A stretch of 44,174 nucleotides of DNA from a virus (lineage: Duplodnaviria > Caudoviricetes), in the IMG/VR virus record IMGVR_UViG_3300020045_010366, positions 1-44,174 of that record; one strand, written 5' to 3'. Numbering within the stretch: position 1 is the stretch's first letter; each line of letters opens with the position of its first letter. Shown here one piece after another: positions 17 to 43,889 of the stretch. A program made the translations under genes and the position numbers. Below the pieces are notes generated by a model, which saw only the letters and a list, made by a program, of their open reading frames with translations, was not told the DNA's origin and did no database searches.

Positions 17-1543
17 ATGAAAAAAATAAAAAATAATATTAAAGAAGAAAAAAAAGAGAATGTAGTAAATTTAACAGAAGAACAAACTCTCACTATAAAT
101 TGATTGAGAGAGAAAGTTTATATTGTTAAGAGAGACTACTGAATTACTACGTCTACACTACTACCACATCAAAAGGAAATGTTTGATATTGCTACAGAAA
201 CATATAGAGCTTGGTTTAATAAAAGTTATATTCGGGCGCCAAAATATAAATATGTTACCCTACAAGGATGAAACTGAGTAGGGAAATCATTTTGGTTATA
301 TTATATGCTTACTAGATATGCAATAGGAAAACAATCTAAAAACTATAAACTAGAATATATATGAGAAAAGAAAAATATATTTATAGTTACACAGTCTTGA
401 AGTAATGTAAGAGACTACGTTGAGAAATACTTATTATGAGACTTTAGTCCTTGTAGAATACCACCAGACTTGATAGAAAAGATAATTAGATGAAGCGACC
501 ACATAAAAGAAATACGTTTAAAGAATTGATGTGTTATAACAATTAAAACTGTTGAACAAGGACAGAAAAGGTTGGTTTGATGAAACCCAGACTTATTAGT
601 TATAGATGAACCTATAGAGAATGATGAGGTGTGGGGAGAACTACTTGCCAGACTACGTTCGCCGAAAGCTCAAATGCTATATTGATTTACACCAGTAAAC
701 TGATATAATGCTTCTTATTATTTCCTTTATGAGCAGAATGATGAAATGATAAGGCGTAGAACACACATATGAAAATATAGTTCTTATCTAAATGTAACAC
801 AAGACCATTCAACATTAAACGCTTTTAGTGAAAATGAAAGAGCTGTTCGTTTACATTGAGAGTTTATGCCTAAGAGTGGATTGGTATATAATCAGTTTGA
901 TAGATATACTAACGTAATACCAAAGATTGTACCAAGACTATTATGACCTTGTAAATTTTATTGATGACTAGATGTTGGGGTGAAACATCCCACAGGTTTT
1001 GTAGCAATAGCTGTAGACCAAGACGGTAGACATATAATATTTGATGAATTTAAATGAAGTTGAATGCTTGTAAGAGAGATGGCAAATAAAATTAAATTTA
1101 TGGAAAGTAATTATAAAATAAAATTTGATAAGATAATAATTGATAGTGCTGGGCAAAGAGAAAAATTAGAACTAAAACAATTATGAATTTCTTGTGATAA
1201 TGCAAGAAAACAAGATAGATGAGATAACCACGAGAAGAATAGAGTGGCGTGAATATTAAGAGTGAACCAGTTCTTTCACGATTGAATGTTATTAATAACT
1301 GAAAATTGTGTTGATTTAATTAAAGAATTATGAGTTCACGCATATGCTGATTGATGAACTAAAGATTGAGATGTTAAAAAGGTTAATGACGATTTAATTG
1401 ATTGAATGCGTTACTGCTTATTCTTTCTTAAACCTCCACGCGAGAAAAAAGAACTTTCATTTATTGAAAATTTTAACAAAAAATATAAAAAATATTGATT
1501 ATGATACAAGAAATGAAAGGTTATACAAACAGTGGATGATTAA
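17..1543 (+). CDS. terL: Terminase large subunit
   Basis: With TGA=Gly: Walker A QGGNGVGKS, Walker B LLVIDEP, coupling motif GFTP, nuclease motifs GGLDVGVKHP and DDLIDGMRY; ends TAA at 1541-1543. Confidence 0.93.
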
Positions 1544-2240
1544 CTGAATTATGAAATAAATATTGAAAACTAACAGTAATATCAATTTGAGAATATAAAA
1601 TATATCCATCTTGACAAAAAAGAATTACTTTTGACTGTATATGTGATTGTTGAAATAAACATAATGTAGTATGAAATAAATTAAGAAATTGAGAAACAAA
1701 AAGTTGTTGATGTTCTTGGAAAGATTTTATTCCACATAATAGAAAAGAATTAAAAGAATGAGAATTGATATGAAAATGATTTACTTTTATAAAAGATGCT
1801 TGATTTGTTAATAACAAAAGACGTATAGAAGTAGAATGTATCCATTGTTGAACGCACAAAGAAACTACATTATATGTAGCAGAAAGAAGTGGTTCTTGTG
1901 GTTGCTTAAATAAAAGCAAAAGAGATGAACACACTGCAAATAGAGTGAGAATAGTTTCAGCGAATAGAAGATGAAGAAAAAATAGCACTGACGATTGAAC
2001 AGTAACTAAACAAGCTATTAACGTCATCTTTTATATGCAAAAATGAAAATGTCCAGTTTGTGATACAGATATATCTAGTAATTATCATATTGACCACATA
2101 TATCCTTTGTGTAAATGATGAGAACATTCTATATATAATATTCAATTATTATGTCCAGAATGTAATTTAGAAAAAAGCTGAAAGTAAAAATGATTTTTTT
2201 AAATCATTATTTTAACAAAAAATATAAAAAATATTGATTA
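1470..2240. repeat. 32-bp direct repeat flanking the HNH gene (1470-1501 and 2209-2240)
   Basis: attttaacaaaaaatataaaaaatattgatta occurs at both positions. Confidence 0.9.
1501..2187 (+). CDS. HNH homing endonuclease with CxCDCG/SCGC Zn-binding repeats
   Basis: GNKYGKLTV..CICDCGN..LRNGETKSCGC repeat, then CPVC..HIDHIYPLCKGGEHSIYNIQLLCPECNLEK. Confidence 0.9.
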
Positions 2241-2282
2241 AAATACAATAAATGAAAAATAGTTAAAGAAAATATTGATTAA
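2211..2282 (+). pseudogene. Orphaned second copy of the terminase 3' end
   Basis: Reads FNKKYKKYGLKYNKGKIVKENID*, versus FNKKYKKYGLGYKKGKVIQTVDD* at the end of terL; same length. Confidence 0.75.
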
Positions 2283-2294
2283 CAAAAGACATAA

Positions 2295-2837
2295 ATGAAA
2301 AATAAAAAACCTATAAGTGATAGAATGAGAGAGATGATGGAAGACGAAGAAATAATTCAATATGCTATGGTGCATTGATTTAAAGACGTTAGACATCCAA
2401 TGAATATTGCAGAATGAGTTCTTCCTTGACAAAAAATGAAAAGAGACCAAATATATAGAGAAATATGAACAGATAAAAAAGAGTATTGACTAAAAGAACT
2501 TAAACTAATAAATACTTGAGAGAAGAAAGAATTTTCTGTTTATAAGCAAGAACTTAAAAAGAAAATAAGAGAATGAATGAAAGAGAATGCTGAAAAATTT
2601 TTATGAGAAGTGTTTGAAGAAGAGTCTCCTCATTTTATGAAAGCTAATGAAAAAGCCAGACTAGCATTAGATTTACTAAAAGCAACAGATAGAGAATATA
2701 ATCAAACAGTAACAAGTCCTGTTACAATAAATTTAGGTGAACTTCCATTATGAGAATGATTAGAAGAAGCACAAAGAAAGCTAATTCTTGAATTAGGAAT
2801 TACTCAAGATATTTTTTCACAATTAGAAAATGATTAA
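2295..2837 (+). CDS. Hypothetical protein, possible terminase small subunit
   Basis: 180-aa helical ORF between terL and portal; ARLALDLLKA..YNQT..VTINL resembles a TerS C-terminus. Confidence 0.5.
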
Positions 2838-4590
2838 AGAAACAAAACAACTAGAGTGAAAGATATTAAATGAATATATTAATCTAGTTACTATAAGAAA
2901 TCAAGACTGATTTGAAAGCAAGCTTTCTTGATGGATAGAAAAAAGTCAATTAAAAAAGAAAGAAGGTGAAAGATATAAAACCCATTTATCAAGAGCTGTT
3001 TCTGACCAACAAAAAGCTGACCTATTACATAATAATCCAATATTTGATTTCATTCCATTAGATAAGGATGCGCGTACAAACGTATATCCTCTTAAAGAAG
3101 CTTGGAAATATTGGTGGAAAGTTGATGAAACTGATAGTAAAATATATGATGTAGTTAGTGATGCGGCAGACTTCGGTAGTTGATTTTTGTATCAATGATG
3201 GAAAGTAGAATATAGAAATGTAGATATGCCAGTTTTTGATAATATTTCTAAATGAATATCTTTTGAAAATAAAAAAGTTGAGCAATATTTTTGAATATAT
3301 AGTGAATACATTAGGATAGAAGATATCTATTTTGATTGACTTACAATAGAAGATTCAAATATTGTTATATGGAGAAAATTTTGGAATAGAGATGATTTTA
3401 TATTAGCTCACGAAAATAATAGTTTATATAAAAATATAAATAATAAACTTCCTTGATATGATATCTTTATGGCTAGTAATACAAATATTCCTAGACTTAG
3501 AAATTGATTAATGGAAGATATGTTAGTAGAAATAAAATATTATAATAAAGCTAAAGACTCTTTAGTAATATTGGCTAATGGTAAAAATGTATATCACACA
3601 CCAATACCTCATACACATAAAGAACTTCCTTTTGTAAAATATGATAATTTCATTTATAGAAATAGACTTATACAAATGTGAAATTATGAGCTATTGGAAG
3701 ATGTTGAATTATATATAGATAAACTTAGACATCAAACTATTGACATTACTAAGGCCAATATATGATTTACAGCAATAGATAAGGATTCAGATTTTAATCC
3801 AGAAGTGTATAAAATATGAGCGCAAGAATTTATAGAACTTGAAAACTTAGACTCAATTAAACATATTTCTGCAAATATACAAGCTAACAGTTTAGTTTGA
3901 TTACAAAATAGTTGACAGGAAGATGCGATAGTATTAAGTTGAACAGACTATAGAAGCCAACTATTACAAAGCTGAGAAACAGCAACAAAAACAGCTAGTA
4001 AAAATGCAAGTCAATTAAAGCGTGTCAATCTTATATTAAAAAGAAACTCGTTTAAATTTTATAATAGACTAGCAAAACTACGTTTAGCTGATATGCAATG
4101 GATAGCTAGTTTATGAGAATTTAGAATACCATTAAAATGATTACACGTAAAATGAAATGATTTTATTAAATTACAAGATGGATATTGATTATTCACAATA
4201 AAACCAGATATGCTTAAATGAATGTTTAACATAGTTATGCAAACAGAAAGTTTATTGGGCGACTCAACTGAAAAAGAAAAAGAGAACTATCTAAATTTCT
4301 TTCAAATATTTTGAAATTTAATTGATGAAAATCAAAAACCAATAATGAATAGAAATAATATGGTTACTATAGCTTGACAAAAACTATGAGTTGATGTTGA
4401 TTATCTATTAGAAAAAGAAATGTCAAGTAAGAGTGGTGAAGATATAATAAACGAAATAATACAATGAAATAATTGACAAGGTGAAATTTGAAATCAATCC
4501 AATAACCCAAATGCTATACCAGTAGAAAATAGAGCTAATAATGCCGGCTGAGTAAATGTATTGGGATGAGGGAATACAGCTACTAATTAA
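2830..4590 (+). CDS. Portal protein (P22-like)
   Basis: 586-aa ORF in the expected position; DAADFGSGFLYQGW, IRIEDIYFD, PHTHKELPFVKY, TAT motifs. Confidence 0.8.
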
Positions 4591-4849: not shown

Positions 4850-5488
4850 ATGGAAAACGATAATAAAAACGCTCCTAACAATCAGCCAGAGTTATCTGAT
4901 ACTGAAAAAAAGTTAAAAGCAGACCACGATGAGTTATATGGTAAATATAGCAAGAGGAATGCACAACTTTATAAAATTTCAGAGCTTGTCTTTGAAAAAG
5001 CTCCAGAAACTATATTAGACTTTGATGATGAAATTAAAGATAGGATAGTAAAGGAAAAGTTTTGAGTAAATACTTTCGCAGAAGCATTAGCTGTGCTTTG
5101 AGAAGACTTTTATAAAAAAACAAAAAATGATGATGACACATCAGACTTAGAGAAAACCGTAGCTGAGTTAATCAAAGATAAAAAGATGTCTGATTATCAA
5201 AGAAAAGAACAAAATGAAGATATGGCTATAGATTTATTTATAACTAAAAATGCTTCTTTATTTGAATGAATAGAACAACCGAAAGAGCTATTAAAAAAAG
5301 AAATGAAAAAATTAGCCGATTGAACACCTATGCAGGAAAAAATAGAAGATGCTTCTTCATTAGTTAAAATGAGATATTCTAAACAAGTGAATTTTGCTAA
5401 CACAACAAGCTGAAATTCGAAGAATTTTAACACTGATTGAGTTAAAAGAAATGCTTCTCTTGCTAAAATATTTTGAAACAAAATTTAA
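4850..5488 (+). CDS. Capsid scaffolding protein (putative)
   Basis: Charged helical 212-aa ORF between portal and capsid genes. Confidence 0.6.
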
Positions 5489-5509
5489 TATTTAAAACAA
5501 AAATAAAAT

Positions 5510-5965
5510 ATGGCAAATATATTATTTGAAAAATGAAACGCTATTCCTTCTGAAACTAGAGTTGCATCAAATTCTTTAGCTATTGCTCAACACGATTTCG
5601 TATCAGAAACAAGTGGGTTTATGGTTAAAGCAGGTGCATCATCAGAAGTATTAGGTATATCAGAAACTATAAAAACTTTTGACTCAGATAATCAAACTGT
5701 AGACAAAGCTGTAGTTAACTTTGTACCTAAACAAAATGACCTAATAATGAAAATGGTAGTAAATGCTTCTTCTTTAGCCCAAGCTGATGTAGGTTCATAT
5801 TTTAATATGACATCATCACAAACTATTGATTATGCTACAAAATCTACTACTAAATCAGTTGTAAATACTTCTGATGCTGGTTCAGCAACTGACCCATTAA
5901 TTACAAAACAATTTCAATGTACTAAGTTTCTTACTTCTACACTTTGATTGTTTAAATTAATTTAA
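5510..5965 (+). CDS. Capsid decoration/cement protein (putative)
   Basis: 151-aa Ala/Ser/Thr-rich beta-type ORF directly upstream of the capsid gene. Confidence 0.6.
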
Positions 5966-5986: not shown

Positions 5987-7051
5987 ATGGCAATACAATT
6001 TACTTGAACAGAGGTTGTTGATAGTGTTGTTCAACTTATTAGACCAGAATTAGAAATAGCTTTTTCTGAGGCTGATTTAGACCCAAGAGCAGAAGGTTCA
6101 ATCCTTGAAGCATTAGGGTTTGTTACGGTTGAAACAAGACTACCACAACACGTAGTTACAAGAATTGGTTCAGTTTCGGCTTTACCAAAAATAAATGAAA
6201 ATGGTGATAGACCAAGACAAAGTTACTCTACTTGAGATGAAAAAGGATATAAAGTTAGCCAATATGGTTGAAGCTATAGTATTTCTAAATTAGCTATGAA
6301 AGTTATTAAAGATAGTGGTTTAGACACTTCTTTACTACATCCAACAGTTGCTTCTGAATTATCAGACTTAGCTTCACAAATAAAGAGACTTGGTATATCT
6401 GCTAAAATTACTATGGTTGACGAAGCGACTAAATTACTAGCTAATGGGTTCTCTGTAACAGCTCCTTACGGTGCAGGTAGCGCATCTCCTGACGGTTATG
6501 CTTTATTCTCTGCTTCTCACGCATCTGGTTCTAACTTAGTTACTTGAGCAATTAGTTCTTCTACTGCTCAAACTAAATTAACAGAAGCAATCACTGCTTT
6601 AAGAGCAATTAAGAATGACAAATGAGGAATATATAGACTTCCATCTATGTATACGCTAGTGTGTAATCCTACTAATTACTTAGTGTGGGTGAAAGCATTA
6701 AACAACTGAGAATATTTCTCTTCTAAACAAGACGATGTTGCATTAAGTAACTGAATCACTGCAAACGTATTCACTTCTGTGGATTGATTTAAAGTGGCGT
6801 TAATCGCGTTAGAAAGTTTTGGACAACCAGATGTAAATGGTGTTACTATTTGAACTGGTACTCAATCTTTCCTTTTAGATGCAGATAGACTTAGAATGTC
6901 AAAAGCATTAAGACTTATTAAACTTTACGACGTTGAAATCGATGACTATATCGACCAAAGAACTAAAGAATATGTAGTTGATTGTGATTTTGCATTCACT
7001 GTAGACCATTTTGGTGCTGAAATAGGTATCGTTGGTTTCACTTGAGCGTAG
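5987..7051 (+). CDS. Major capsid protein (Mu gpT-like, HK97 fold)
   Basis: 354 aa; LPKINENGD, YGGSYSISK, PDGYALFSASH, LVCNP motifs; strong GGT codon bias. Confidence 0.85.
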
Positions 7052-7544: not shown

Positions 7545-10316
7545 ATGCAAGATGTAAAATTATTTCGTATAGAAAATTGAGAAATATTAAAAATAATTAC
7601 TGAATGATTTAAAAATGTTTCTGATTTTTATTTTCTTACAATAGAAGAAAGAGACTTATCAATACCATTAACAAATCAAACTTGTATCGTTGCCGAGACA
7701 GGTTTATTTTATATTTTTGATTGAACAGACTGGATAGCAGACGGTAGTATTATATGAAGAGAATGAGAGGATTGAATTGATGGGACAAATTGAATAGACT
7801 GAGATGATTGAGCTTCAATAACTAGCTGAACTTTTGTTTGAGATGATTTAGTTTTCACAAAAGATGATGCAACAACAGTAACAATAACAGATGCTAAAGT
7901 AGATTTAAAATGAAACCCTTGAACAGACTGAACAGATTGAATAAGTTGTAATTGGAAATGACCTTGGGTAACTACCACAGTTTATGTTTTACAAGATATA
8001 GTAGAAGAATGATGAAGTTCTTATGTTTGTATAGTTCCACACACTTCTTGAACTTTTGTAACAGACTTAGTAGATTTAAAATGGGAACTGTGTGCTCAGA
8101 AATGAACTGATTGAACTTGAATTTGAGATATGTTAGTTTCTACTTATGACCCTGCTTGATGAGCTGAACAAGTTGCATTTGAAAGTGATTTAAATTTAAA
8201 ACAAACAGTTTTCACTTGAATATGTCAAGAACAATATATCACAGAAAATGATATAGTTATTGATTGAGTTAGTGCAACACCTACTTTAACAATAGCAACA
8301 ATAAAGAACTGAGAAACAATCTCAGCATCTAATCCTATATGTTACTATACAGATTGAAGTGGGATAGCAGTGAGGCATACTATAAATACAAGCGTAAGTG
8401 TTAATTTTGCATATACCACTTGAGTATGGTACTTCTATTTTAATACTTCTTGAGCACTTATAGCAACACAAACTCCTTGGACTACATTTGATACGATAGC
8501 AACAGTTTATAGACTTTATGTAAACTCTACTCTATCTTGAGCTGATAGGATACAAGTGGAAGTAGTAGAATATCATAAGAATGATATAAGTTGGATAGAC
8601 CACGAATGGAAACATTCATTATGAACAATTCACTACACTTGATTAAATATTGCTAGTAATTTACTTACTAGTTGAAGTCCAAATGCAGATGGTAGAAATT
8701 CAGTAATAGCTCTCACTTCTTGAACTTGTATCGATGATAACCTTCCTTATACAGTAACAAGTACAACATCTTGAGTAGTTAAATTTACACAAGACCTTTG
8801 AAACGTAACTCCTGCAAGTTTGAATGCTACTAATTCAGCTATATTCAATATTAGATGAAATGATAGCGGTTGAATACTTGTAAAACAAACAGGAACTAGA
8901 TATCCATTTAGTTTTAATTCAAGTACGAATATACCAGAATATATAACAACTTTATGAGTTAGAACTCCTGTGAGTAATTTATATTATTTTGTTTATTATG
9001 TCTATGCTTTACAAGACCCTAGAAGATGAGAAACTATCAAGATTGTATCAGCAGAAACACAATTTTCAACTTCCACTTTAGCATCTGCTCATAGTTGGGA
9101 GGTGTTACAATGACTATATCCAACTTTAGCAGATACAGAAATAAGACCTTTATATAAACTTACTTTTGAATATAGAACTATTTATGATGTATGAGCTAAG
9201 TACTCAGCATTAAGAGTAGTTGACGATTTAAGAAAAGCAAGAGTTTCAAGAAGTGCAGTTGCTAGTTGAAGTCTGCCTGCTACAAGCGTAACAGAAATAA
9301 CTGATTGAAATGTGCAAACCGCTTTAGATAATCTAAGAATTACTAAACAAGACATAGAAACTGCAACACTTACTTATGCTAGAGAGGTTATATGTAGGGC
9401 TAGAACAACAGCTAATATTACACTTTCTTGAACACAAATAATAGATTGAATATCGCTAATCGCTGGAGACTATGTATTAGTAGCTAACCAATCAACTTGA
9501 GCAAATAACTGAATTTATATAGTTAATGCTTCAACTTGGACTAGAGCACCAGAATTTGATAGCACAATAGAAGCCGACAAAGTTGATATATTTGTAGTTG
9601 AATGAACAACATATTACAAAACTTGGTGGATGTGTTATACAAGAAATCCAACAATATGAACAACAGCTTTAGTATTTACTCAAATGCCTTGATGAATATG
9701 AACTGCGGCAGACCAATCATCAGCTTGAAATCATAGTCATACGGCACTTAATTTCACTTGATTAGCTTCTATGTGAGCATCAATAGCTTATAGATATACT
9801 AGTAGAACAGCTACTGCTTCCACTTGAACAACAGATAATGTAGTTAGATTTAGTTGAAGCACTGCTTGACAAATTGAAACAATGCCAGACTGAATTGCTG
9901 TAGCAAATAACTCTTGAAGAATAATTCATTATGTAAACAATGCTTCTGTTAATTGGATATTAAGGCAATTCACTTCTAATACTTTAGATTGAAGCGCAAG
10001 TGATTTTACACTTATTCCTTGAGAATATAAAACTATTTACAACATAGCAGTTGACACTTGGATAACATTAGATAGTTGAAGAAAAGATAATACAATAGAC
10101 TTAACTGTACCTGCCGAAACATATTGAGCTTGATGGAATTGAAGTAATGAAGTTCCTACTAAGAACGATGTGTATGATAAGATAGAGACGGTAGTGTCAA
10201 GTATAGCTTGAACTCCAACTTGATGAGATAGAATAACAAATATAATAAGTCTAACAACTGCTGAATATACATCAGCAACTAAGGACTGAGCAACTCTTTA
10301 TATCCTTACTGATTAA
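7545..10316 (+). CDS. Mosaic tail/head fibre protein
   Basis: Gly-X-Y collagen repeats built from TGA codons, CBM-like WKGPW..Y..D.V..GSSYVC, ANITLSGTQIIDG..GDYVLVANQ..NGIY..WTRA domain, C-terminal LTTAEY..KDGATLYI. Confidence 0.8.
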
Positions 10317-10317
10317 T

Positions 10318-11022
10318 ATGAGTATTAAACTTTGAAACACAGCAATAAGTAAATTATATTTATGAAGTATAGCGATAAGTAAGTCTTATTTATGAACAAC
10401 TCAAATATTTAGTACATCTGCTTGAATAGCTTTCGATGCTGGTGCTTGATGAGTATCATCTACTCCTGCAACTACTTTTACTAAATCAATAACAGTATGA
10501 AGCTGAGTTAATAGAATATTATTTGTTACAGTAGCTTTAAATGCTTGAACAACATCTTGAGTTACTTATGCTTGAAATGCAATGACTAAAATAGATGAAC
10601 AAGCTCACACTTGATTATGAGCAGTTAGTTTATGGTATATTATAAACCCTACTAGTTGAACAAATAATATGGTAAGTACAGCAAGTGTAAGTACATATCA
10701 TTTGATTAATGGAGCTTCCTACACTTGAGCTAGTCAAACTTGAATACCAGATGCTACAAGTAAAACTAATTGAAGTGCTAGTACATACACTTCTGTACTT
10801 TCTTCTATTGCTGATAATTGTTGGCATATAGCAGGTACTCGTTCAAGTAGTGCAAGTGTAGTTGCTTGAGCTAATACAACAATGAGAGCAAATTGATGAA
10901 CAAATGGTGGGATATTTGATTGAAACTGACCTATAACACCAGCAGGAAGTAGTACACTTAACATTACAGCTTGAAGTAGTGCAAATTATGCAATAGTTGG
11001 AGCTACATTTAAACCAGCTTAG
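10318..11022 (+). CDS. Fibre-associated/adhesin protein
   Basis: N-terminal IKLGNTAISKLYLGS repeat, then Ser/Thr/Gly-rich beta domain (SITVGSGVNRILFV, VTYAGNAMTKI). Confidence 0.7.
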
Positions 11023-12936: not shown

Positions 12937-13956
12937 ATGGATTTAATATATTGAGAAATATTACAATGAAAGGTTGATTGAATAAATAAAGTTTATACAA
13001 GTCAATATACAATATCATCAACAGTTTATTTATGAATTTGATGAGCTGAGTATACAGCATTCACGTCTGTATGAAGAATAATAACGCTTACTGATGCAAT
13101 TCCAGAATGAGAAGAACCACCAGTGTTGGATTATTATTTTACAGATAATATAACATACACAGCTTGAGCTGACTTTTTAGTTTCAAATGCGCTTTTAGAA
13201 ACATTAGATGTACTATGAATAAGTGCTTTTAATAATTCCTATAAACAAGCTACTGCAATAAAACTTTTTAATGAATGTTATTTTTCAGAACTTAATAGAA
13301 ACTTAGACAATAGAATTGTTTCTACATATAGCTTTACTAGTGGAAATAGTTATAAATATTGAGAATTTTATAGATGAGATGTACTTCCTGTGCAGGAACT
13401 AATAAGTAACTACACACCAAGAGTTGGTAAATTAATGATAAACTGATTTATTACTAGTTTTACTACTAGAACAACTTCGGCGTTTACACTTCCAGACTGA
13501 CTTACTACTACGCCAAATAATTGAGACATAGTATTAGTTGGTTATAAAATTCCAGACTCTGTTAAGGAAATATCATATCTAACGCTAAATTGAGATAGAT
13601 ATACAAGAATGTCAAGTGAAGACTTTTGAATATGAAATAAGTATTGAACATATTTAATAAAAGATGGTTATTTATTCATTTCGTGGAGTGATGAAGCACA
13701 AATAGTGTGTCATTACACTTCTAAAAATGATAGACTAACACTTCCTACTGATATAATAGATATAGACTACACTTATTCTTCAATTCTTTCTTTATATGCT
13801 TGATATAATATGATGATAGGTAGAGAAGATGTAAGAAGAGCAGAAATAAAACAACAATATACAGAATTAAAAAGAAAATATATAGCATACCTATTAAGAC
13901 ATTCAAAAAGGGTAACAACTATGAATAGTTTTAATTGACCACTTAGTTGATTATAA
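12937..13956 (+). CDS. Head-tail adaptor-like structural protein
   Basis: 339 aa; N-domain paralogous to the preceding gene; YKIPDS and C-terminal ILSLYA helix typical of adaptors; position before tail hub. Confidence 0.5.
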
Positions 13957-13965
13957 AAAAATAAT

Positions 13966-29159: not shown

Positions 29160-29163
29160 AAAA

Positions 29164-29589: not shown

Positions 29590-29619
29590 TTATAATTAAC
29601 TACTTAAATAAATTTTATT

Positions 29620-29691: not shown

Positions 29692-29694
29692 ATA

Positions 29695-30986: not shown

Positions 30987-31409
30987 CTAATAAATATTTA
31001 TCAAGTCACTGGTTTTAAAATAAATCCAGCCTTTCTTCTTATCAATTCACCTATCCCAGCGTTGTAGTACATATTCTTTTCTTGGTAAATATTCAAGAGG
31101 CTTTATATAAAATAGTCAGTCCTCATACAGAAATAGAAATAATGTTTCTTCTCAACTGGTGTAATATTTGTTCCGAGCCTCTCACAATTTATTTGCCCCA
31201 ATAAGTGTATCTTCATATAAGCTAGAAGTACACCTTCTTGTTTTAAGCTCTATATGTATAGGGATATTCTCCTTATTGGTTATAATAAAATCGTGTACAT
31301 CGGTGCTTTCCGTTCTGTGTACCTTATATCATAATTTAATTAGATATTCTAATATCTTTTCTTCTCCTTCTATTCAAAAATTGTAGTCTTTTAGGAATTT
31401 ATTACTCAT
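30987..31409 (-). CDS. PD-(D/E)XK endonuclease
   Basis: GIEGEEKI..HDFII..IELKTRR..DTLIGANK. Confidence 0.75.
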
Positions 31410-31938
31410 TGTCTATCAATTTTATTAAACATTCTACAGGGTTATTTCAGCTTAATATTTTACAGGACGGAGTAGGAAAAAACCATTTAAAATCTCTTTT
31501 CCTTTTTACTATATCATCCTTTCTATCTCATCTATATATCATTCTTTTTTCCTGTTCTTCTGGGGTTATTTCTAAGAAATATGTTTCAAATTCAATTCAT
31601 TTTCTTACAAAGAACTCACTAGCCATCTCTCTACCAACTGGGTCTAATATTAAAATAATATTTCTATCATCTTTTCATTCATAACAATTTAATATTCAAT
31701 ACCAATTTCATCAATAGTTAGTATGTTCTAAGAAGTCTCATTTATCTAATTTAAAGAAAAATTGTTCTTTAGTTAAAAAGATATATTCATCTAATTCATA
31801 GTCTCATCTAGCTTCTCTTGTTGTACAGTTTAATGGTCTAACCCATCTTTCTGTGTCAATTAGCTTTTCTTGTATTGTTGTTTTACCACTTCAACTTGGT
31901 CAACAAATAATAGCTATTCTTCTTTTCTTATTTGTCAT
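31402..31938 (-). CDS. gmk: Guanylate kinase-like nucleotide kinase
   Basis: GPSGSGKTT, TTREAR..E..YIF, FLEHTNYGGNWYG, DPVG. Confidence 0.88.
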
Positions 31939-32193: not shown

Positions 32194-33870
32194 TTAAATT
32201 TTCTTAAAAGAAGTTTTGGTTGAATTACTATTCCCCTCAAAATCCTCAGCCATATTAAATGTAGCACTAGCATAGTCGACGTTTAAAAGAAACGTAGTAC
32301 CAGCTTTTCAGAATTTGTTTTTAGCTATTGTTAAATAGCGTTCTCATTCCTTTGCCCATAAAGACAAGATAACGTCTGATGAAGCGAATAAGGCTCAAGA
32401 ACCTTTAGGCATCATATTTTCACCACCAACAAATCTACTTTCATTATTTACTTGTGATAAATTAATTAATGTAGTTCACGTTATAATGCCTAATTTTTGC
32501 ATTCTAAGAGCTATATCTGATATCTTCTCATATTCAGACCCTTTAGCTTCTATTATCTGCACAAAATCAATTATAGCTATATCTGGGGCGTCTGCTTTTA
32601 TCTTTCATTCTATAGCTTCAATGGAACGAATATTATCATATATTTCTATATATTGTTCTAAATAAGAAGTGTCGATTTCGTTTATGTTTTTAATGATGTA
32701 GTCTCTATCTTTTTGCATAAGAGCAGACAGGAGTTCAATAATAAGCATTCACGTATCAATTTCTAAACTATAGAAATGTATTTTCTTTTTTGTTTTTATT
32801 AGTTCTCTACATAGAGAATACGCAAAACGAGTCTTTCATACATTAGAAAAAGCCATAACCAAATATGTTTTTCATCGGATAAATCATCAAGTGTATTGGT
32901 CTATTAATGGATAACCAGAACTAACCCCTAAGCGTCATCAATTTTGTTCATATAATTTCTTATATACCTTAGCTTTTTCTATTGCTAGTCATATATTTGT
33001 CATTGGCTTTTTTGCTTCGGCGAATATTGTAATCATAACTTCTTCACCTATTTTAAATGACGTTAATAATTCATTAATATCCTTCACTCAATAATCTCTT
33101 AAAGAGAAAATATAGGCTTTTATTCAAGCTTCTTCAATCATTTTTAAGCATTTTTCTCACGCCTCATCATTGTCTGGCACTAAATATATTAAATATTTCC
33201 CACTCAATTCTTTTAACATTCTTATCTGGTCTTCATTATTTGCATTAACTAGTCATACAACGTTAGTTGTATATTGTCTCAAACTTAGATAGTCGGCAAA
33301 TCATTCAACAACCACTATAGCTTTTTTTGTTTCATCTAAAGAGTTGAAAAATAATCAGTCTCATTTAGTTTCTTTCTCTATATAAAAAGCTTTTTTAGTT
33401 ATTGACCTACTTTGTAAAGAAATGTAATGTCATCAAGTAGAAAGAATAGGAATACATAAATTTCAATTATAGTTTTTTATCCGTGGAGTATCTTTAGAGA
33501 CGACTATTTCCCTATCTCTTAGATATTCTATCTGCTCGTCTGTAATTGGTCATAATGAGTCCCATATTCATTTAATATCTTTCTCTGTTTGCATTATTTC
33601 TTCTCTTTTAATATTAAATCTATCTACAAACCATTGCAGTGTATTTGGAAAATCTAATCATAATGTTTCACTAACAAATTTTATTCTGTCTCAGCTAGGT
33701 CTTCATTTTCAAGAGAAATCACTAACTATTCCTCTAATAAAATCTGCCCTATATCAATCTGTTAATTTATTTTCGTGATAAAGAAACCCAACTCTTCAAT
33801 TCTTTTTATATCTAATTCAAAGAGTGGATAATATTTGTTCAAGTGGGATAGAATTTATTTGCTCTTTCAT
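32194..33870 (-). CDS. Primase-helicase fusion (TOPRIM + DnaB-like)
   Basis: IVVEGFADYL, PDNDEAG, KDINE; AFSNVGKT, IIDFVQ, LSQVN, KGSG, IAKNKFG. Confidence 0.9.
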
Positions 33871-34020
33871 TTTATTAAAATTATTTAATATAATCACTAT
33901 AGTCTTCCTAATATAAATTATCTGAATAGTTATCCATATCCATATAATAATCCTCTGGACAATTATATTGTTTTTCTAATTCTTCTATATGAGACGTATC
34001 TTTTTCCATATATTATTTAG

Positions 34021-34864: not shown

Positions 34865-35590
34865 TTATAAGCTACTAAATTTTAACAGAGCGTTAGTTTG
34901 TTTTATCCACGCATAAAGAGAAAATCTATGAGAAGCATAATCGTTTCTTTGGTCTCTTCTGTTTATATCGGCAAAATAATTCATTATAGCTCTATTAAAT
35001 GTTTCCTTGTCATATTTATTTCGCTCAGCAAACCATAGTTCATTTAGTGAATCCCAAGATTTCAGTCCCTTCTTTCATATAAAAGGAATAAGAGAGTATT
35101 TGACTGGTAGATTATTCCGCCAATCAATTATTTGTTCTGTACTAACGTCATTTAAATCAGTTTTTATCTTCTCTTTTTTCTTTTTATTTGTCTTCGGAGA
35201 AGAAAGAGTATTATTATTTATATTTATTATATTATTATTGTGTGTCGTTTCGACTCACTCAGCTGTGTCGTTTCGACTCACTAACTGAGTTGTTTCGACT
35301 CACTGTGTTAAATCGACTCACTCTAATATATTTTCTCTATAACAAAGCTCCCATAATTCAGTTGTTTTGTCGCCGTCTTCATCTAATATTCATTTAATAA
35401 TAAGTCTATTAATTATTAGTAATATATTTTTACGAGTTATTCAAAAGAAATCAGATAAATATGTTTTATTAATACTCCCTGTAAATCTATTAGAATGTGA
35501 TATATAATATATTGTATCAGCAATAGCATATTCATTCATAGATAATCAAAGCTCTTTTCTTTTTATATGGTTTATTGTAGTGAATTGCAT
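34865..35590 (-). CDS. Replication initiator (lambda O-like wHTH)
   Basis: ELGLSMNEYAI..YLSDFFGITRKNIL..INRL..KGIL; internal iterons and Asn/Lys-rich linker. Confidence 0.8.
35241..35323. repeat. Four iterons, probable replication origin
   Basis: tgtgtcgtttcgactcact x2, tgagttgtttcgactcact, tgtgttaaatcgactcact; AT-rich tract adjacent at about 35205-35240. Confidence 0.85.
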
Positions 35591-36163: not shown

Positions 36164-37309
36164 TTAAAATACATCTTCTACTATCGTTTGTTGTGCTGTT
36201 GGTTCTTCTTGGATTGTGGCATTCTCCCAATCAATAATAAAACTCATTCTATTATTTATTCTGGATGACGATGCTTGAGGAGTAATTAAATCAAAAAGCT
36301 CGTGATTTAAAGAAAACATAGGAGTTGATGATTGATTTATTAACATACTATTCATTTGTTCTCTATATAATATATCTTGTTTTATTTTATACAAAATACT
36401 TTTATATGTAGACCTAGATACCGCTCTATTATTTAATAGTTGAAACTCTGAGTAATAAGTTAAATTCATTGTAATTCAAATAAGCTGTATTTCTCAATCT
36501 ATATTATCTATATTTGTTAATACTAAAGGAATTTTATATGTATTATTATTATACGAAACAAATCAATCCCAACCTGTTTTATTTTGCTTTACTATTCATA
36601 CTTTTTCCTCATATTTATCTATTAATTTTGTAAAAAAATCAATAGGAGAAACAAGTTCTCTTCTAAAAATATCCTTGTTTTCTATTTCTTTTAACAGGTC
36701 TATTAATTTTCAATTAAAAACAAAATCATTAGGAACTATTCTAAGTTCTAAACTCTTAGGTTTTCATTGAGAAGTTTCTCAACTAATAAACACAGGAACA
36801 TATTTATTTTTATCTCTTGTGTTTTGATAAATATCTAAATAATATCATCTTCTCTTTAATGTTTCTATCCATAAATGATTATGATTATGTGACCAATATC
36901 ACCATATTTGGTGTCATTTAATTAGTCTTAATAGTCATAATTCACTAATTGTATCTATATTTTCTATGATAAAGCTCATCACTCAACTTAGCAATTTATC
37001 TTTAGGCATTGATAGTTTATCAAAAAAATGTATATGAGTTCACACAAAAGCTGGGCTTTGTCCATTTATTTCAAAACCATATTTTTCTTTTTGATTTTTT
37101 AAATATTCTACCACCTCATTCACCATATCATCACTATTATCAAAAGGGAAAAAGTTATATTCAATAGTTGTATTATAATATTCTTGACTAAGCTTAACTC
37201 ATAAGTTTCATATATCTTTAAACTTTTCAAGAGAAAGATTTTCTTCCTCAGCTATTGTATAATATTCATACCCTACTCAATTTAATTCCACCTCAATTCA
37301 TATTTTCAT
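36164..37309 (-). CDS. Amidoligase (COOH-NH2 ligase), divergent copy 3
   Basis: MKIGIEVEL, TIEYN, VGTHIHF, LELRIVPN. Confidence 0.75.
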
Positions 37310-37349
37310 ATATATAATTTATGTAATAATTTTATTTAAATTGTAAATT

Positions 37350-38444
37350 TTATAAAAAATATTTTAAAGCATTTGACTGAAAAGTATTTTTAAATAAATA
37401 TACAGGATAATCAACTCCCCACGTATCTTTAAATGGTTCTCAATCATATATATAGAAATATTCACACATATAAGCTTCAAATACTTCTTCCCAATAAGGA
37501 GCTGTATAAACATATTTTTTTCTTTCAAAGAAATTTAGAATATTTTGTTTTTCTAATTCATAGTCCCATTTATTTTCATTAGGAAGGTCTACATCAAAAG
37601 CATATTCAAACCTTAACTTTTTATCCATCACTTTCAATAAGTCTCTAACATCATCTTCTTCTTTTTCTTTTTCTGTAGGCGTTACAGGTGGAAGAGAAAG
37701 AGGCGGAGTGTATGAACGATATAAATAACCTTGTCAATTAGTTAAATAAGGATATTCAATGGGGCTTTGCGTCCTTTCTTGATATGAATAAACCACTCTT
37801 TTATAAAACTTTTTCTCATTTAATTCTTTAAAAGTATTTTTTATTATCAATCAATTTAAATCCATTATTATATATCACTTATTTTCATATCATTCTTTTT
37901 TTCAAGGGGAGTAGTTTGTAATGCTCACCACTCTATTTCAATAGATATTAATAAAGCTTTCTCTATATCAATCACTATAAAATAGTATTTTATCGTCGCT
38001 TATTACGACTATATTTCAAAAATAATCTGATATATATTCTTTAACAAGTCTTTCTAGTTCTATTGCACAATCACTAATTGTATTACATTCGTCATCTAAA
38101 TGACATAATAAATTATGACTATCCACTTCTTTTTTATAGGTTTCTTTTAATGCTCTATGAAGAGCTTTACAAGTTCAATTTTGAGCTAATATAAATTTCT
38201 TTCATACAAATGGATGAGTATTTTCTAAGCTAGCTTCTCAAACCGATGCTTGTCTATTATGAAGAACAGAAAGTCATTGAAATGATTTTTTACGAAGAAA
38301 ATTCTTATATCATCTATAAGAATATCAACTTGCTCTATAAACAATTCATCAGTTCCATACTCAAACGCCATCTAATCATCTATCTTGATGATTTGATAAT
38401 ATTTCTTTTAATTTAAATCATTGAGCTATTGCTATTCAACACAT
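37350..38444 (-). CDS. Class II glutamine amidotransferase, copy 2
   Basis: MCGI, DRGLDGVG, HNRQAS, NTHPF, AQNGT, DSH. Confidence 0.88.
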
Positions 38445-38455
38445 TATTTTATAGT

Positions 38456-39262
38456 TTAATTATAAACGGAGTGTAATATTTGTTTTTCAAATATCTATTT
38501 TTCTAATTCATCACATTGTTTTCTTAGATAAGCAATGATATTCTTTTCTTCTGCCACATCTATTTCATAAGCCTTAATTATTCTCTTAATTACATTTATT
38601 TTTTTTCTAATTGTTGGATAAGAAATATGTAATATAGATAAAAATTCTACACTTTTTTCATTTATTACATTCAATGCTTGTTCTTTTGTATTTCAAACAT
38701 TTGTGATAAAGAACCTTATTAAAGCAAGTCTAAACCTCACTTGATTCAAGCTTCTTAATATAGGAAAAATTCTAAATTCTACTGTTCTTTCTCTAACTCA
38801 CACATCAACACTATGAGAATATTTACTATTAAATCTATTAGAATAATTTCTTAACGCTCTTTGTGGATATAATCCCCATAGTACAGGTCTAAATCATTCT
38901 ATATTATTATAAATTTTGTCTGTATTTTTTCCTTCAATAGAAATGTGTATGTGTCATCAACATCTATTACTATTATTAGTTCAATTTAAAACAAAGCTAT
39001 ATTTTTCAATAAACTCATATGCTTTATTCATATCTAATATAGGCGTAATATATTCTCATCCTCTAACACTTCCATCTCTTTCACATCTCCATCAATCATT
39101 TTGTAATATTACACAATGCTCATAAGAAAGAAATGAGTCCCTTTCAATTTCAAACCCTACCTTTATTTTTCATCATTCAGATAAGTCTAAGTCTCTACTG
39201 CTTCTATTTACTAAATTATAACTATGATATCATTGTAAGATATCAGAACAATTTAAAGTCAT
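38456..39262 (-). CDS. Amidoligase, copy 2
   Basis: VGFEIE, DGSVRGGEYITP, CGGHIHIS, RTVEFRIFP. Confidence 0.88.
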
Positions 39263-39296
39263 AAAAATTTAATTAAAAAATATTAGTTTCTAAAGG

Positions 39297-40127
39297 TTAA
39301 TTTCTAAAAGAGAAGCTATCATCTATTTCCTTTCCATATAAAGAGGAAAGACAATTAATAACATTATTATGCCAATTATCTTCACTAGAGGCATATATTT
39401 TTCATTCCTTATTACCATACCTAGAAAGGTCTTTTACCTCTGTATACTCATTTAAATACTTATTATTAAGGGTTTGTGCTATAGCCTCTATGCCCTGTAT
39501 CGGCGAATCGAAGTGTACCTTGTCTCATCTATCATTATTTCACACATTACCAAAATTGTTTTTTGTTTTAAGTGCTTGTCATAAAGAGCTATCAGCCTTT
39601 GCTATACATATTAAAATAGGTGTTTTTAGTTTATATTTTTCCCCCACTCTTTGCCACCTTTTTTCTAATACATCTTCCCCTCTTCAATAAGATAATAAAA
39701 GCTCATTCATTCTTTCTTCTGTCTTATTTGCTATTAAAGGAATAAAAGCTTGACTTTGTCCATCTTTATTCACCTTCCATTTTTCAACTATATCTAATTG
39801 AGTTTCTAATATATCATTACATTTAATCGGCTCGACCACCGTATTATAATGAGCATAATTATAATCAACACATTTAGTTAATATGTTTTTTCTAGTTGAT
39901 AAACTAGCTATTTCCCTATTAATATTATTAATATTAATAGTATCTTTTTGATAATATTCTTTTCTTATGTTATTATACTTAATAGTAATTTTATTTACTA
40001 TTTCTTGGTCATTATCTGCCAACACTATTTTCATTCATAAAATAATTATTCATAATATGATAAAGAACAATATTATATTTCTATCTTTACTTTTCATAAA
40101 GCTTTCTATAAAGGTTAGTTTTTTCAT
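39297..40127 (-). CDS. Membrane-anchored glucosaminidase (GH73-like)
   Basis: N-terminal TM IILFFIILGIIILGM, coiled coil, CIAKADSSLG..NNFGNV..FDS..GIEAIA..YASSEDNW. Confidence 0.7.
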
Positions 40128-40147
40128 ACTTGGTTTTAAAAAATAAA

Positions 40148-40450
40148 TTAAAAGCTATTTAACACTTTTCATAATAAATAAGCTCATCAAGCTACTCACA
40201 CTGCTGTTTGTATTCAATCACCCACTGTAGTTTGTTGATTTTTTAGTTCTTGTACCTTCACTTCCACTGGTTTGTTTGCCTCTATTTGAGCCTGTATTTT
40301 CATAGCCTCTAATTGATAAGTTCTGTCTTTTTCAACTTGTTCTTGTGCTATTTTTTGCTGTTCTAATTGATAATCTAAACATTCCTTAGTTTTGCATCAA
40401 CAACTTGTTAATGTTAGCAATATAAATATTACTATAAATATTTTTTTCAT
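40148..40450 (-). CDS. Lipoprotein with C-terminal Gly-rich hydrophobic helix
   Basis: MKKIFIVIFILLTLTSC lipobox; Q/E coiled coil; TAVGVAGGAYLLGKVL. Confidence 0.75.
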
Positions 40451-40468
40451 ATATTAAATATTAATAAA

Positions 40469-41173
40469 TTAAATCCCACCTTTTAACCACATAGGTAGAC
40501 TAACGTCTTCATCTGCTACCCTTTCATACCGTTCATCCTCTATTTGCTTTGAAGATTTTATGCTTATTTCTCCTACGCTTTCATCAATCCAATCATCATC
40601 AACTTTTTTTTTACCCCAATTTAATAAAGGGGTATATACCTTATATCAACTATTACTATACCAACTATTTCAGTCCCAATGTCATAGTTTTTCATTTATT
40701 ATAAAATAATCTCTTCCATTAGCAATGATAAATTTATTACTACCACCAGCAATTTTTAACATTATTTCAACAAATGTTGTAGTAAATATTTTATTGGTTG
40801 GTGTTCTGCTTTCACTAAAAAATAATGCAAGTTCACTTGTATCACTTTCACCTTCTCTAGGAGTAATACTTATTATTCAATTATGAAATAGATAAGTAGA
40901 TTTATTTAAATTAAAAGGATGAACTAAGTGTTCATTTTTTGGTCAAGCTGTTCACCATCTGAAATGACCTATAAGAATTGTATAAGGCTTTGCTATAGCT
41001 TCAAAATAAGCATTAATACTTTCTTGTAAATTTAATGATTTAAATATTGTTACATTTCAAAATTCATCTGAAATATACATTCAAAAACCATCTCTATTTG
41101 TTCTCCAAGCCTCATTAAATTCTTCAACAGTAAATGTTCTTGTATTATCTTTTTGCATAAAAAGTAGACACAT
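40469..41173 (-). CDS. Class II glutamine amidotransferase, copy 1
   Basis: MCLLF, NRDGFG, GHFRWGTAG, VHPF, FHNGI, SDT. Confidence 0.88.
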
Positions 41174-41199
41174 ATTTTTATATTAGTTAAAAATTAATA

Positions 41200-41310
41200 T
41201 TAGTTTATTTCTTTAAATGGTATTCCATAATCACAAAGTTCTCTTTCTATCATATCTTCCCATTCGTCATCCAATTCTATAGTTCTATCTTTAAATTTAA
41301 TAATAATCAT
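41200..41310 (-). CDS. Small acidic peptide
   Basis: 36-aa ORF with AGAGGA upstream. Confidence 0.4.
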   Translation of the reverse strand: MIIIKFKDRTIELDDEWEDMIERELCDYGIPFKEIN

Positions 41311-41342
41311 ATAAAATATAATTAAGTGATAGAGGAAGAGAC

Positions 41343-42485
41343 TTATTTATTAAGTCTATTACACTGTTCTTGTAAATAATTTGTAATACTTTCTTGTGTC
41401 TGTGGGTCAATTTCATAAGCCTCAATAATTCTTTTTAATATTTCTTGCTTTCTTTCTAATGTATCATATACAGTATGTAATATTTGGATAAATTCTACAC
41501 TTTTACAATTTATTATATTCAATGCTTGTTCTTTTGTTTGACAAGGATTTGTGATAAAGAACTTCAACATTCATATTCTAAATTTAGCTTGGTCTAAACT
41601 ATCTAAAGCTGGAAATATTCTCACTTCGATAGTCTTATAATTACTTCATAAACTAAAATCAGCTCTTCTTCCATTCACTGAATTGTTTTTACCACACCGT
41701 GCGCTTCTGGCTCTATCTGGATAAATAGCCCATAATATGGGTCTATAATGTTTTATATCATTATAAAAACTTTCTCTATCATTATAATTTTTATTAGCTA
41801 TATGTATGTGTCATCAACAACTACCAGAGCTTTCTAAATCAAATAGTTTTTGAAATTTATCTTGTGATAAATATTCTATTGCCTTATCTATATCTAATAT
41901 AGGAGTACAATGTTCTCCCCCTTCAATACTTCCATCGCTATGAATAGCCCAGCCTTGAAAATCCCTATTGTATTCACCATTACTAAGCCGTTCAGCTTTT
42001 TCTATTTCTAATCAAATAGTTATTTCAGCTCACTCACTAAGGTCAGAAAAACCATAAATAGACGGGTGTTCATCATCATCATCATCATACTCATCATCAT
42101 CATCATCATCATCATACTCATCATACATATTGTCATACTCTTCTTCCTCTTCATAGTTTTGGTCTTCTGCATACCCCCAATTGGTATTGAATAATCATTC
42201 TCTACTTAAAAACCGTCTTCAAGTATCAACCGCTTTAGTTAATAAATCAAAACTAGTGTATAGCTCATTAGTATCAGTCGCTAAATACGTATTTGTATTT
42301 AATCAAACAATACCACTATCAACTGTTGTTTTGTAGTGTCATTCTTTGTAATATTTTCTATCGTATCTACTACCTTTATAAATTACACCGTTGTAATTTA
42401 TGTCTGAAAAGTTTTTACGTAAAGCATCACCCACTTCCACATCCACCATTCATAATGGATATAAATTCAACTGCAATGTTCTCAT
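41343..42485 (-). CDS. Amidoligase, copy 1, with N-terminal extension and poly-Asp linker
   Basis: IGLEIE, DGSIEGGEHCTP, CGGHIHIA, TIEVRIFP. Confidence 0.88.
42070..42152. repeat. (TCA)n microsatellite encoding an Asp/Glu/Tyr tract
   Basis: Reads EEEEYDNMYDEYDDDDDDEYDDDDE on the minus strand. Confidence 0.8.
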
Positions 42486-42507: not shown

Positions 42508-42900
42508 TTAGTCATTAAAATAAGTATCAGAAAAATATATCTCATCAACTTCCACCTTAACATTATAACACATATCTCATTGTACAATAACTCAACTTGA
42601 TGAGGATTTTCAACAATATTTTCTAAAGCCCTCTATATTATTACTATAAACATCAACTAATCATCTCTTTTCTATTTCTTTTTTAATTCTTCTATCTAAC
42701 TCTTCTTCTTTTTTTGCCTCTTCTCTTTTTTCTATTTGTCTCACTCTTATTTCTAAATTATCAAAAGAGGATATACTTATATTATCTTTTTCTAATTTAT
42801 CCACTTTTATGTTTATATCTTTAGATACAATATCTAAACAATAAACTCATACGATAGATAAAAATACAAGTAAGGATAAAAAATTTAAATATGTTTTCAT
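42508..42900 (-). CDS. Signal-anchor coiled-coil protein
   Basis: Hydrophobic N-terminus FLSLLVFLSIVGVYCL; 130 aa. Confidence 0.6.
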
Positions 42901-42987
42901 TATTATTTTCAATTAAAAAAAATAAATTAATCAAGTTTTATCACTTCCCCATTATGAGCTATTTTTACAACACATCAACCCCCAGTT

Positions 42988-43152
42988 TTAAACTGGCAAG
43001 AGTGATTTACGAAATTTTCTAAACTTATTATATTCCATTTTTACACTCCATTTATCTTCTCATTTCTTATATATAAATATAGTATTACACCGTTTTTCTA
43101 CTCTATATTTCTCATAAAAATCCATTTCACTAGTAATTAAATTCTTTTCCAT
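42988..43152 (-). CDS. Hypothetical protein
   Basis: 54-aa ORF. Confidence 0.4.
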
Positions 43153-43394
43153 TTATTTTTACTTAAATAAATAAAATGTAATTTACTACGTAAATTTAGC
43201 TTTGCTCTACGGTCTGTTTTATACATTAACAGATTATTCATAAATAATATAAGCTATTTTTGTTGTTCACTTCTATAATAGCTTCATTATAACTACCTAC
43301 TTTCTTTTCAAACTGTATTCCGTTTACAAATAAGCTCTTAATTGTGAACCCTTTTAATTTTTTCATATAGTTTTATGATAAAGGAATATAAATA

Positions 43395-43889
43395 TTATAA
43401 TCAAATTCAATTAGGGTGATTAAGTTCTATACGTTCTTGTAGATTTCTTTTAATCTCTTCACTCATCTCATTCAATTCTTCTACTGTTTTATTTTCTATC
43501 TCATCATATTTATAATTATTATAACAAATTAACTCCACCTGTAAGCCTGTTTTTATTTGTCTTGTTGCTTTCTCTATATCCTGCTCAGTTTCAAATATAT
43601 TTAATTTCATTGCTTTTGAAAAGGTTTCATAATTATATATATTATAACAATAAGTATTTATATATCCTGTTTCCTTATCTTTATACAGTCTACAATAATT
43701 ATAATATACACTCTTTTTTACTTTATTTTCTTTTCCGTTCTTTGGATTAATAGTTTGTTTACATATTCTATGTCAATTTTTATTTTTCTCTATCCATATA
43801 AACATACTTGTTTTTAATCTAAATCAATATGGATAATCTGTTATTTCATAAGCTTCTTCTCTAGTGTATACATTTTTTAATAGTTCCAT
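43395..43889 (-). CDS. Phage hypothetical protein
   Basis: DYPYGFRLKT..WIE..GHR..QTINPKNG..KKSVY; 164 aa. Confidence 0.65.

Follow-up and report, generated by a model that had tools for sequence, protein, structure and literature searches.

Genome layout and in-frame TGA codons

The IMG/VR record IMGVR_UViG_3300020045_010366 (44,174 bp, GC 27.2%), analyzed here over its full length and referred to as the window, carries the genes of a tailed double-stranded-DNA phage in which TGA is practically certain to encode glycine and CGG is highly likely to encode tryptophan. With TGA read as a sense codon, 57 genes cover 93.1% of the window and form two convergent arms. The plus arm (20 genes) encodes the terminase, portal, capsid, tail fiber, and large virion proteins, and the minus arm (37 genes) encodes the primase-helicase, guanylate kinase, phosphoesterase, and exonuclease, along with tRNAs and an amidoligase/amidotransferase cluster. 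Three markers point to Caudoviricetes: the large terminase subunit (17..1543, plus strand; PF03237 and phrog_2, E 1.5e-30), the major capsid protein (5987..7051, plus strand; PF25209), and the portal protein (2830..4590, plus strand; a weak phrog_1216 match, E 0.0017). The window proteins matched no integrase, repressor, DNA polymerase, or release factor family; because neither an integrase nor a repressor family matched, a lytic lifestyle is likely, and from the gene order we infer a short-tailed lytic phage. The record is classed as linear, with an estimated completeness of ~80%; a terminal repeat was looked for in the window and none was found, and, by our reading of the sequence, the right end truncates a gene.

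The window was initially annotated as a phage with TGA coding for Gly throughout and as a candidate virus of Gracilibacteria or Absconditabacteria. Coding density, which that annotation proposed to compare among codes, was calculated from open reading frames (ORFs) of at least 60 amino acids (aa) and amounts to 24.7% under table 11, 91.0% with TGA read, 41.1% with TAG read, and 71.1% with TAA read. In-frame TGA occurs in all 57 genes (20/20 on the plus and 37/37 on the minus strand), with totals of 732 TGA, 246 GGN, and 136 TGG codons. The recoding thus extends to every gene, but the claim that it concerns the whole phage goes beyond a linear record that is ~80% complete. The genes do end in TAA (50) or TAG (7), as had been reported; only these ends occur because the genes were called under table 25. 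All four motifs cited for TGA at Gly positions were recovered codon for codon. These are the terminase P-loop Q-G-[TGA]-N-[TGA]-V-G-K-S within 254-292, in a 508-aa protein with 32 in-frame TGA codons and one CGG (233); the kinase motif C-[TGA]-P-S-[TGA]-S-G-K-T within 31911-31876; the Gly-X-Y runs of the tail fiber at 7749-7820 and 7902-7949, mostly written with TGA; and the sequence M-C-[TGA]-I that starts at 38444.

Reassignment of TGA and probable reassignment of CGG

The residue aligned with TGA was tallied at the DNA level in 38 related loci and 11 genes, after three duplicate loci were dropped. In columns with TGA in the window, 359 of the 1,065 cells of the relatives are stops, 250 encode Gly, and 3 encode Trp; TGG columns contain 90 Trp, 1 Gly, and no stops among 140 cells; and GGN columns contain 104 Gly and 64 stops among 355 cells. 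A full-library search yielded 150 terminases, 116 of which look standard-coded, and in these 116, the TGA columns hold G in 903 and W in 19 of 2,689 cells (background, 3.2% and 2.1%), with a slight bias toward Gly from a query that carried Gly at TGA. When TGA was masked, alignments with solved guanylate kinases and DnaB helicases from the PDB placed Gly at the Walker A sites. The best Pfam score was obtained with Gly for 7/7 proteins and never with Trp (the alternatives scored were Trp, Ala, Ser, and Cys for six proteins; for the seventh, the alternative was Trp). The metallophosphoesterase (27405..28079, minus strand; PF00149) has TGA in its GD and GNH motifs and scores 55.3 bits with Gly versus 30.7 bits with Trp, and the major capsid protein rises above the PF25209 cut-off only under code 25. 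Under table 4, Trp would make up 5.6-6.8% and Gly 1.7-1.9% of the residues. Hence, the alignments do not place mainly Trp at TGA, in agreement with the initial reading.

Window usage per 10,000 codons is 296.5 for AGA, 2.2 for CGA, and 9.4 for CGG (all codons). The 13 CGG codons (233, 24803, 26709, 27090, 27252, 31175, 33483, 35119, 40531, 41699, 41990, 42215, and 43092) outnumber the 3 CGA codons (32877, 35023, and 35275), whereas six other four-codon boxes contain 238 NNG versus 1,395 NNA (p 6.5e-9). In a masked test, all Arg and Trp codons were masked in the query, and the residues of the homologs were scored. In the window, Trp-like sites amount to 5/6 for CGG, 16/261 for Arg codons, 43/63 for TGG, and 0/3 for CGA, and the difference between CGG and Arg codons is significant (p 5e-5). 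The closest complete relative, the IMG/VR record behind locus L001 (G618; 55,434 bp with direct terminal repeats, 19 of the 57 window genes in common), behaves the same way, with CGG Trp-like at 7/10 sites (p 1.4e-6) and CGA at 0/4.

Inspection of individual sites is consistent with these counts. At 35119, in a 241-aa gene that precedes the primase (34865..35590, minus strand), three relatives have TGG and two have CGG, and two CGA codons of this gene fall in non-aromatic columns. The CGG at 26709, in an HNH gene, aligns with W (three times), F, Y, M, and L in seven homologs, W being present in 3 of 6 neighbors among HNH genes from standard-code phages. The primase-helicase (32194..33897, minus strand; 32 TGA) has a CGG at 33483, in a hydrophobic column of 49 hydrophobic or aromatic residues with no Arg or Lys, and a CGA at 32877, in a column of K, E, R, and P. 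Opposite the CGG codons at 41990 and 41699, an in-genome paralog has F and Y, and opposite that at 27252, G618 has Val (by eye). The CGG at 31175 is no sequencing slip, given that a contig of a close strain (run X1) shows no difference there. No CGG/TGG exchange appears among the differences listed between the window and this strain, and searches with three of the genes that contain CGG yielded no cultured homologs. We set aside C-to-U editing of CGG because a tRNA(CCG) bearing Trp elements is encoded by the candidate hosts.

Gene content of the two arms

Downstream of the terminase, an HNH endonuclease gene (1495..2187, plus strand; family matches) is flanked by a 64-nt direct repeat (1455-1518 and 2194-2257) with 84% identical positions, and the arrangement at 1455-2257 looks like an insertion that duplicated the terminase end. 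The next gene, encoding 180 aa (2295..2837, plus strand), could be the small terminase subunit by its position and has no family match. The portal protein shows 31% identity to the G618 protein and to that of G484, a Gracilibacteria genome discussed below, where the gene also lies beside the terminase; the capsid protein shows 27% identity in G484. Two head genes (4850..5965, plus strand) likely encode, by position, a scaffold and a capsid accessory protein, and the second (5510-5965) also precedes the capsid gene in both relatives. Next come a tail fiber, whose Gly-X-Y repeats are written with TGA, and a minor tail protein (7545..11022, plus strand; phrog_11518 and phrog_553). The four large virion genes (12937..23909, plus strand; 339, 922, 839, and 1526 aa; phrog_7182 and phrog_2276) have relatives in G618 and G484, and the 839-aa protein contains a transglycosylase-type domain; their layout would correspond to the ejection proteins of a short-tailed phage.

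In the minus arm, an exonuclease (26089..27405, minus strand; phrog_298 and phrog_3377) is encoded in two parts (27109-27405 and 26089-26670) separated by an HNH gene (26674-27108), with CGG codons at 27252, 27090, and 26709. The two parts are adjacent in G618. In a run X1 contig, 132 different letters connect 27139 with 26556 and replace 582, so the close strain lacks the HNH insertion. This strain comes from one freshwater study and is represented by 28 contigs, 23 of them with at least 95% identity, that reach 24 of the 30 bins of 24200-44174. The tRNA cluster (28811..29692, minus strand) contains Leu(TAG), Ser(GCT), and Pro(TGG) genes, with an HNH gene at 29164-29589 inside. It is flanked by two degenerate tRNA-like elements: that at 29619-29692 is a Gln(TTG) form in which position 33 is A, and that at 28811-28900 is labeled Tyr-like from our reading of its anticodon arm. 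The guanylate kinase gene (31402..31938, minus strand; PF00625), with TGA in Walker A, lies between this cluster and the primase-helicase.

The cluster at 36164..42485 (minus strand) includes an amidoligase-like gene (38495-39262) and its paralog (41343-42485), identified by family and paralog matches, and two class-II glutamine amidotransferases (37350-38444 and 40469-41173; family matches). The gene at 36164-37309 matched no family or paralog and is putatively amidoligase-like by its motifs. The trio 35665/36164/37350 is kept in G618 and in locus L077. The region 35665-42485 may encode a peptide-ligase module that acts at the host surface.

A Shine-Dalgarno-like word was detected at 1/57 starts (20 nt upstream); the leaders are A/T runs, as in host loci. 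Bacteroidota are not known to rely on Shine-Dalgarno motifs either, and for this reason, their lack was not used as evidence on the host. Among cultured phages, terminase identity is only 21-24% for the best 25 of 85 records, and single-protein locus searches gave no match.

Probable host and relation to known codes

The initial annotation ascribed the code to a natively recoded host, citing recoded early genes and the absence of a tRNA-Gly(UCA) gene, and this remains the best reading: in all probability, the code of the phage fits that of its host. TGA accounts for 70% of Gly codons in the minus (early) arm and 78% in the virion arm; all 37 minus-arm genes contain in-frame TGA, which first appears at codon 13 in the kinase gene and at codon 27 in the primase gene. 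No tRNA with a TCA anticodon was detected in the window by ARAGORN (to -ps80), by our scan for anticodon arms, or with Rfam; no CCG-anticodon tRNA is present in the tRNA cluster or the sequenced part of the window; and no release factor was found in the window (~80% complete) or in the complete G618. The latter has TGA in 67/73 ORFs and three tRNA matches, none read as TCA. As far as the accessible part of the preprint by Borges et al. (10.1101/2021.08.26.457843) reports, code-25 phages average ~90% recoded genes versus 26-71% in code-switching phages.

Within the lineages named initially, codon usage narrows the host down. We consider a low-GC member of the BD1-5 order of Gracilibacteria the likely host; the genomes compared were 204 of this order and 141 of Absconditabacterales. 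In Cas-locus genes of Absconditabacterales, CGA is Trp-like at 56/83 and CGG at 18/22 sites; in those of BD1-5, CGA is Trp-like at 4/147 sites. According to the Fig. 4 source data of Shulgina and Eddy (2021; PMC8629427), CGG is called as Trp without CGA only in two low-GC BD1-5 genomes, UBA5194 and UBA6489, and among 25 published rows, UBA5194 fits the six-codon Arg box of the window best. The same source gives a CGA use of 13-37 per 10,000 for Absconditabacteria; at the lowest published rate, at least 18.6 CGA codons would be expected in the window, and 3 are seen.

The terminase profile matched 1/204 BD1-5 genomes (G484, 42%) and 1/141 Absconditabacterales genomes (G563, distant, E 3e-20, 26%). 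G484 belongs to the 96-genome family of UBA5194 and also contains, on short contigs, relatives of the portal, capsid, tail, and HNH genes. Its tRNA(UCA) carries the Gly identity elements G1:C72, C2:G71, G3:C70, and U73, and its tRNA(CCG), with A1:U72 and G73, is of the Trp type and much like that of UBA5194; among the 23 tRNAs read, none is a tRNA(UCG). When window positions 1-20000 were searched against the 204 genomes at the DNA level (2-3 candidates scored per genome), most matches were AT-rich noise, and the top one led to G484. For the phage tRNAs, matches were limited to 22-36 nt and to 2/5 genomes compared.

A small protein similar to the C-terminal part of NrdD (24061..24396, minus strand; PF13597) shows 51-69% identity over 35-61 aa to Gracilibacteria and Absconditabacterales genes; these loci were selected by the TGA motif, such that the identities are no best-hit test, and a best-hit search with the protein returned one protein. 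The scan for the TGA-bearing motif in 185,579 genomes gave 33 loci, which were used as centers, and 31 of these are titled Gracilibacteria, Peribacteria, Patescibacteria, or Absconditabacterales; the others are one "uncultured bacterium" and one Cellvibrionales bin. In the latter (L033), the motif is nearly identical to that of L013 from Gracilibacteria, and the contig is probably mis-binned.

Taken together, a phage that combines TGA = Gly with a likely CGG = Trp and relies on the tRNAs of low-GC BD1-5 Gracilibacteria is the explanation we hold likely. The host tRNA(UCA) would insert Gly at TGA, with no UGA-terminating factor to compete, and the host tRNA(CCG), with its Trp identity elements, would insert Trp at CGG, whereas CGA would remain Arg and be nearly avoided. 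No code switch would be required from the first minute of infection on, and because a standard code would break the replication genes every few dozen codons, only such hosts would support the phage.

Among the other explanations, TGA = Trp (table 4), as in a mollicute phage, for example, is scarcely credible. It would agree with the protein databases, where the copy of the window primase has W at 32/32 TGA sites, all 54 relatives are Trp-rich, and W fills 795 of 1,643 TGA-column cells (48%). In the same proteins, however, W occupies 260/672 GGN-column cells and G 0/157 TGG-column cells. Because Trp and Gly are mixed in the GGN columns in the same way and Gly is missing from the TGG columns, the W reflects the code of the annotation pipeline, and we rejected this tally as an artifact of table-4 translation; the DNA-level cells, the terminases, the PDB alignments, and the Pfam scores contradict Trp as well. 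The database thus put Trp for Gly in the window primase and 54 relatives. The whole database clade (P0001-P0055 and P0066-P0081) was translated with TGA = Trp, and P0091 and P0232-P0234 were cut at TGA. It is also very unlikely that the host uses the standard code and the phage switches the code itself, in the manner of crAss-like, Lak, and Jade phages. The ~20% of the phage genome possibly absent from the record leaves room for the necessary genes, and suppressor tRNAs were detected in just 35-40% of such phages in the preprint of Borges et al., as far as its accessible part goes. In a terminase tree of 51 rows, with Gly and Trp masked in all and proteins shorter than 300 aa left out, the sequences from the window, G618, and G484 group together (support 1.0) with mistranslated proteins rich in Trp, but three Gly-rich rows lie inside this recoded clade. 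One of these is part of a recoded gene that was translated under table 11; the other two, P0086 and P0092, are free of TGA and could be either high-GC code-25 or standard-code members. Code-switching phages (crAss-like, Lak, Jade, and Agate) share with the window a low GC content and in-frame stop codons used as sense. They retain the standard code in early genes and are recoded mostly in late or lysis genes, whereas in the window, recoding is genome-wide, including every minus-arm gene, leads to Gly, and comes with no detected suppressor tRNA or release factor, which were not found in the complete G618 either. In the accessible part of the same preprint, the phages that differ in code from their hosts show only TAG>Gln and TGA>Trp, and a self-made switch would need a second change, in a sense codon, as well.

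The two remaining alternatives concern CGG and the choice between host orders, and here several observations weigh against the explanation that we prefer. Plain code 25, with TGA = Gly, CGG as ordinary Arg, and any code-25 host, is improbable. It draws on the small number of CGG sites, 6 of the 13 being scored in the masked test; on residue 7 of the HNH protein, a CGG scored as neutral; on terminase residue 73, which is R in 4/15 relatives at the protein level; on PHROG scores, which with CGG read as W fell for 3/4 proteins on the top family and rose for 1; and on BD1-5 Cas-locus genes, where CGG is Trp-like at only 5/47 sites and Arg-like at 42/47. Genomes in which TGA has a low share supplied nearly all the scored BD1-5 CGG sites; members with a phage-like TGA share of 0.75-0.88 hardly use CGG or CGA. 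Plain code 25 leaves unaccounted for the excess of CGG over CGA against the genome bias, the exchange of CGG with TGG at one site in three relatives, the aromatic and hydrophobic column at 26709, and the same pattern in G618. An Absconditabacterales (SR1) host that reads both CGA and CGG as Trp is unlikely to about the same degree. The majority of the code-25 phages in print have been linked to this order (44/50 versus 4/38 in the accessible part of Liu et al., PMC10746230), and CGG = Trp fits it too. The best primase match in any metagenome-assembled genome, a full primase-helicase relative, is in an Absconditabacterales bin (G170, 36%), and primase matches occur in 3/141 genomes of this order versus 1/204, a weak one, in BD1-5. 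However, the 0/3 Trp-like CGA sites in the window and 0/4 in G618 contrast with 56/83 in the order (joint p ~4e-4), CGA is far rarer than expected, and the sole terminase match in the order is distant. The 23-kb phage-like contig G170:C4 (L078) contains two tRNA matches and a primase whose CGA codons fall in non-Trp columns, at odds with the code expected for the host; two different tRNA(UCA) genes are present in G170. The primase-like match in G568 belongs to a recombinase island and not to a prophage with head genes.

The link to BD1-5 is further weakened by the location of the G484 phage genes on 3-5-kb contigs without recognized host flanks, as composition-based binning could place any code-25 phage in this genome; no integrated prophage linking the phage to a host was found. 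The comparison with spacers suggested in the initial annotation gave no link. Cas1 was detected in 41/204 BD1-5 and 32/141 Absconditabacterales genomes, and clustered regularly interspaced short palindromic repeat (CRISPR) spacers were collected from 120 stretches around cas1 matches (a part of the 86 matches was extended), giving 963 non-redundant spacers. None of the 897 tested is within 3 mismatches of the window; the best matches have 4 mismatches (2 spacers, AT-rich), against 5 in the reversed control. A spacer of L234 (G519) has 3 mismatches in 26 nt to G618 at 29770 and to L066 (control best, 5), with no TTTV upstream, and was not counted. Repeats in L133, L051, and L072, considered as CRISPR arrays, are coding repeats.

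TGA = Gly phages are already known, and the CGG dialect and the host inference at the family level are the new part. Liu et al. (2023; PMC10746230), whose 547 phages may include the window record itself, and Borges et al. have described phages and prophages that use code 25 from both lineages, Gracilibacteria and Absconditabacteria. Recoded free phages of Gracilibacteria are few in print, because 34/38 spacer-linked Gracilibacteria phages >20 kb are not clearly recoded in the accessible part of Liu et al. The published phages share with the window the gain in coding density, dense TGA in nearly all genes, TGA = Gly, and an inferred code-25 host; the window differs in having no spacer or prophage link and in the second reassignment; neither CGG nor CGA turned up when the text of Liu et al. 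was searched for these terms (0 occurrences). The BD1-5 dialect of UBA5194 and UBA6489, as given in the portion of Shulgina and Eddy available to us, has the same UGA = Gly, predicted CGG = Trp, rare CGA that stays Arg, and dominant AGA, but in cellular genomes with 1.8-3.1 CGG per 10,000 (Pfam-aligned codons), compared with 9.4 (all codons) in the phage, which has no tRNA of its own for this codon. The Absconditabacteria dialect is unlike that of the window, where CGA is Trp-like at none of only three sites and is used 2.2 times per 10,000. According to the same portion of that paper, Absconditabacteria are predicted to read both CGA and CGG as Trp, and some BD1-5 Gracilibacteria only CGG, a prediction that the authors call unconfirmed. 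G618 shares its 19 genes with the window at 27-51% identity, along with the two-arm layout, TGA = Gly, and Trp-like CGG but not CGA, and is 11 kb longer, with other tRNAs and no HNH gene in the exonuclease. Searches of open-licence literature (titles) revealed no report of a phage with CGG or CGA = Trp, and only the host paper surfaced.

Two further phage genomes, which share little with the window beyond the primase, show other patterns: in G621 (L151-L153), CGA is used 59 times and CGG 4 times, with CGA Trp-like at 8/14 sites, and in G622 (L154-L156), both codons are shifted, CGA being Trp-like at 3/8 and CGG at 5/10 sites. We lean toward the view that the dialect serves as a host barcode and that phage modules have crossed between three-codon dialects, the hosts being readable to the family level; the window phage and G618, with CGG = Trp and CGA = Arg, would then belong to BD1-5 and G621 and G622, with CGA = Trp, to Absconditabacteria.

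If CGG = Trp is true, this phage uses a code in which a sense codon has been reassigned and would provide independent support for the tentative prediction for BD1-5, whose genomes use CGG too rarely for a good test. Table 25 alone would still place Arg at likely Trp sites. A correct reading would allow host assignment without CRISPR and make the peptides of such phages nameable for proteomics.

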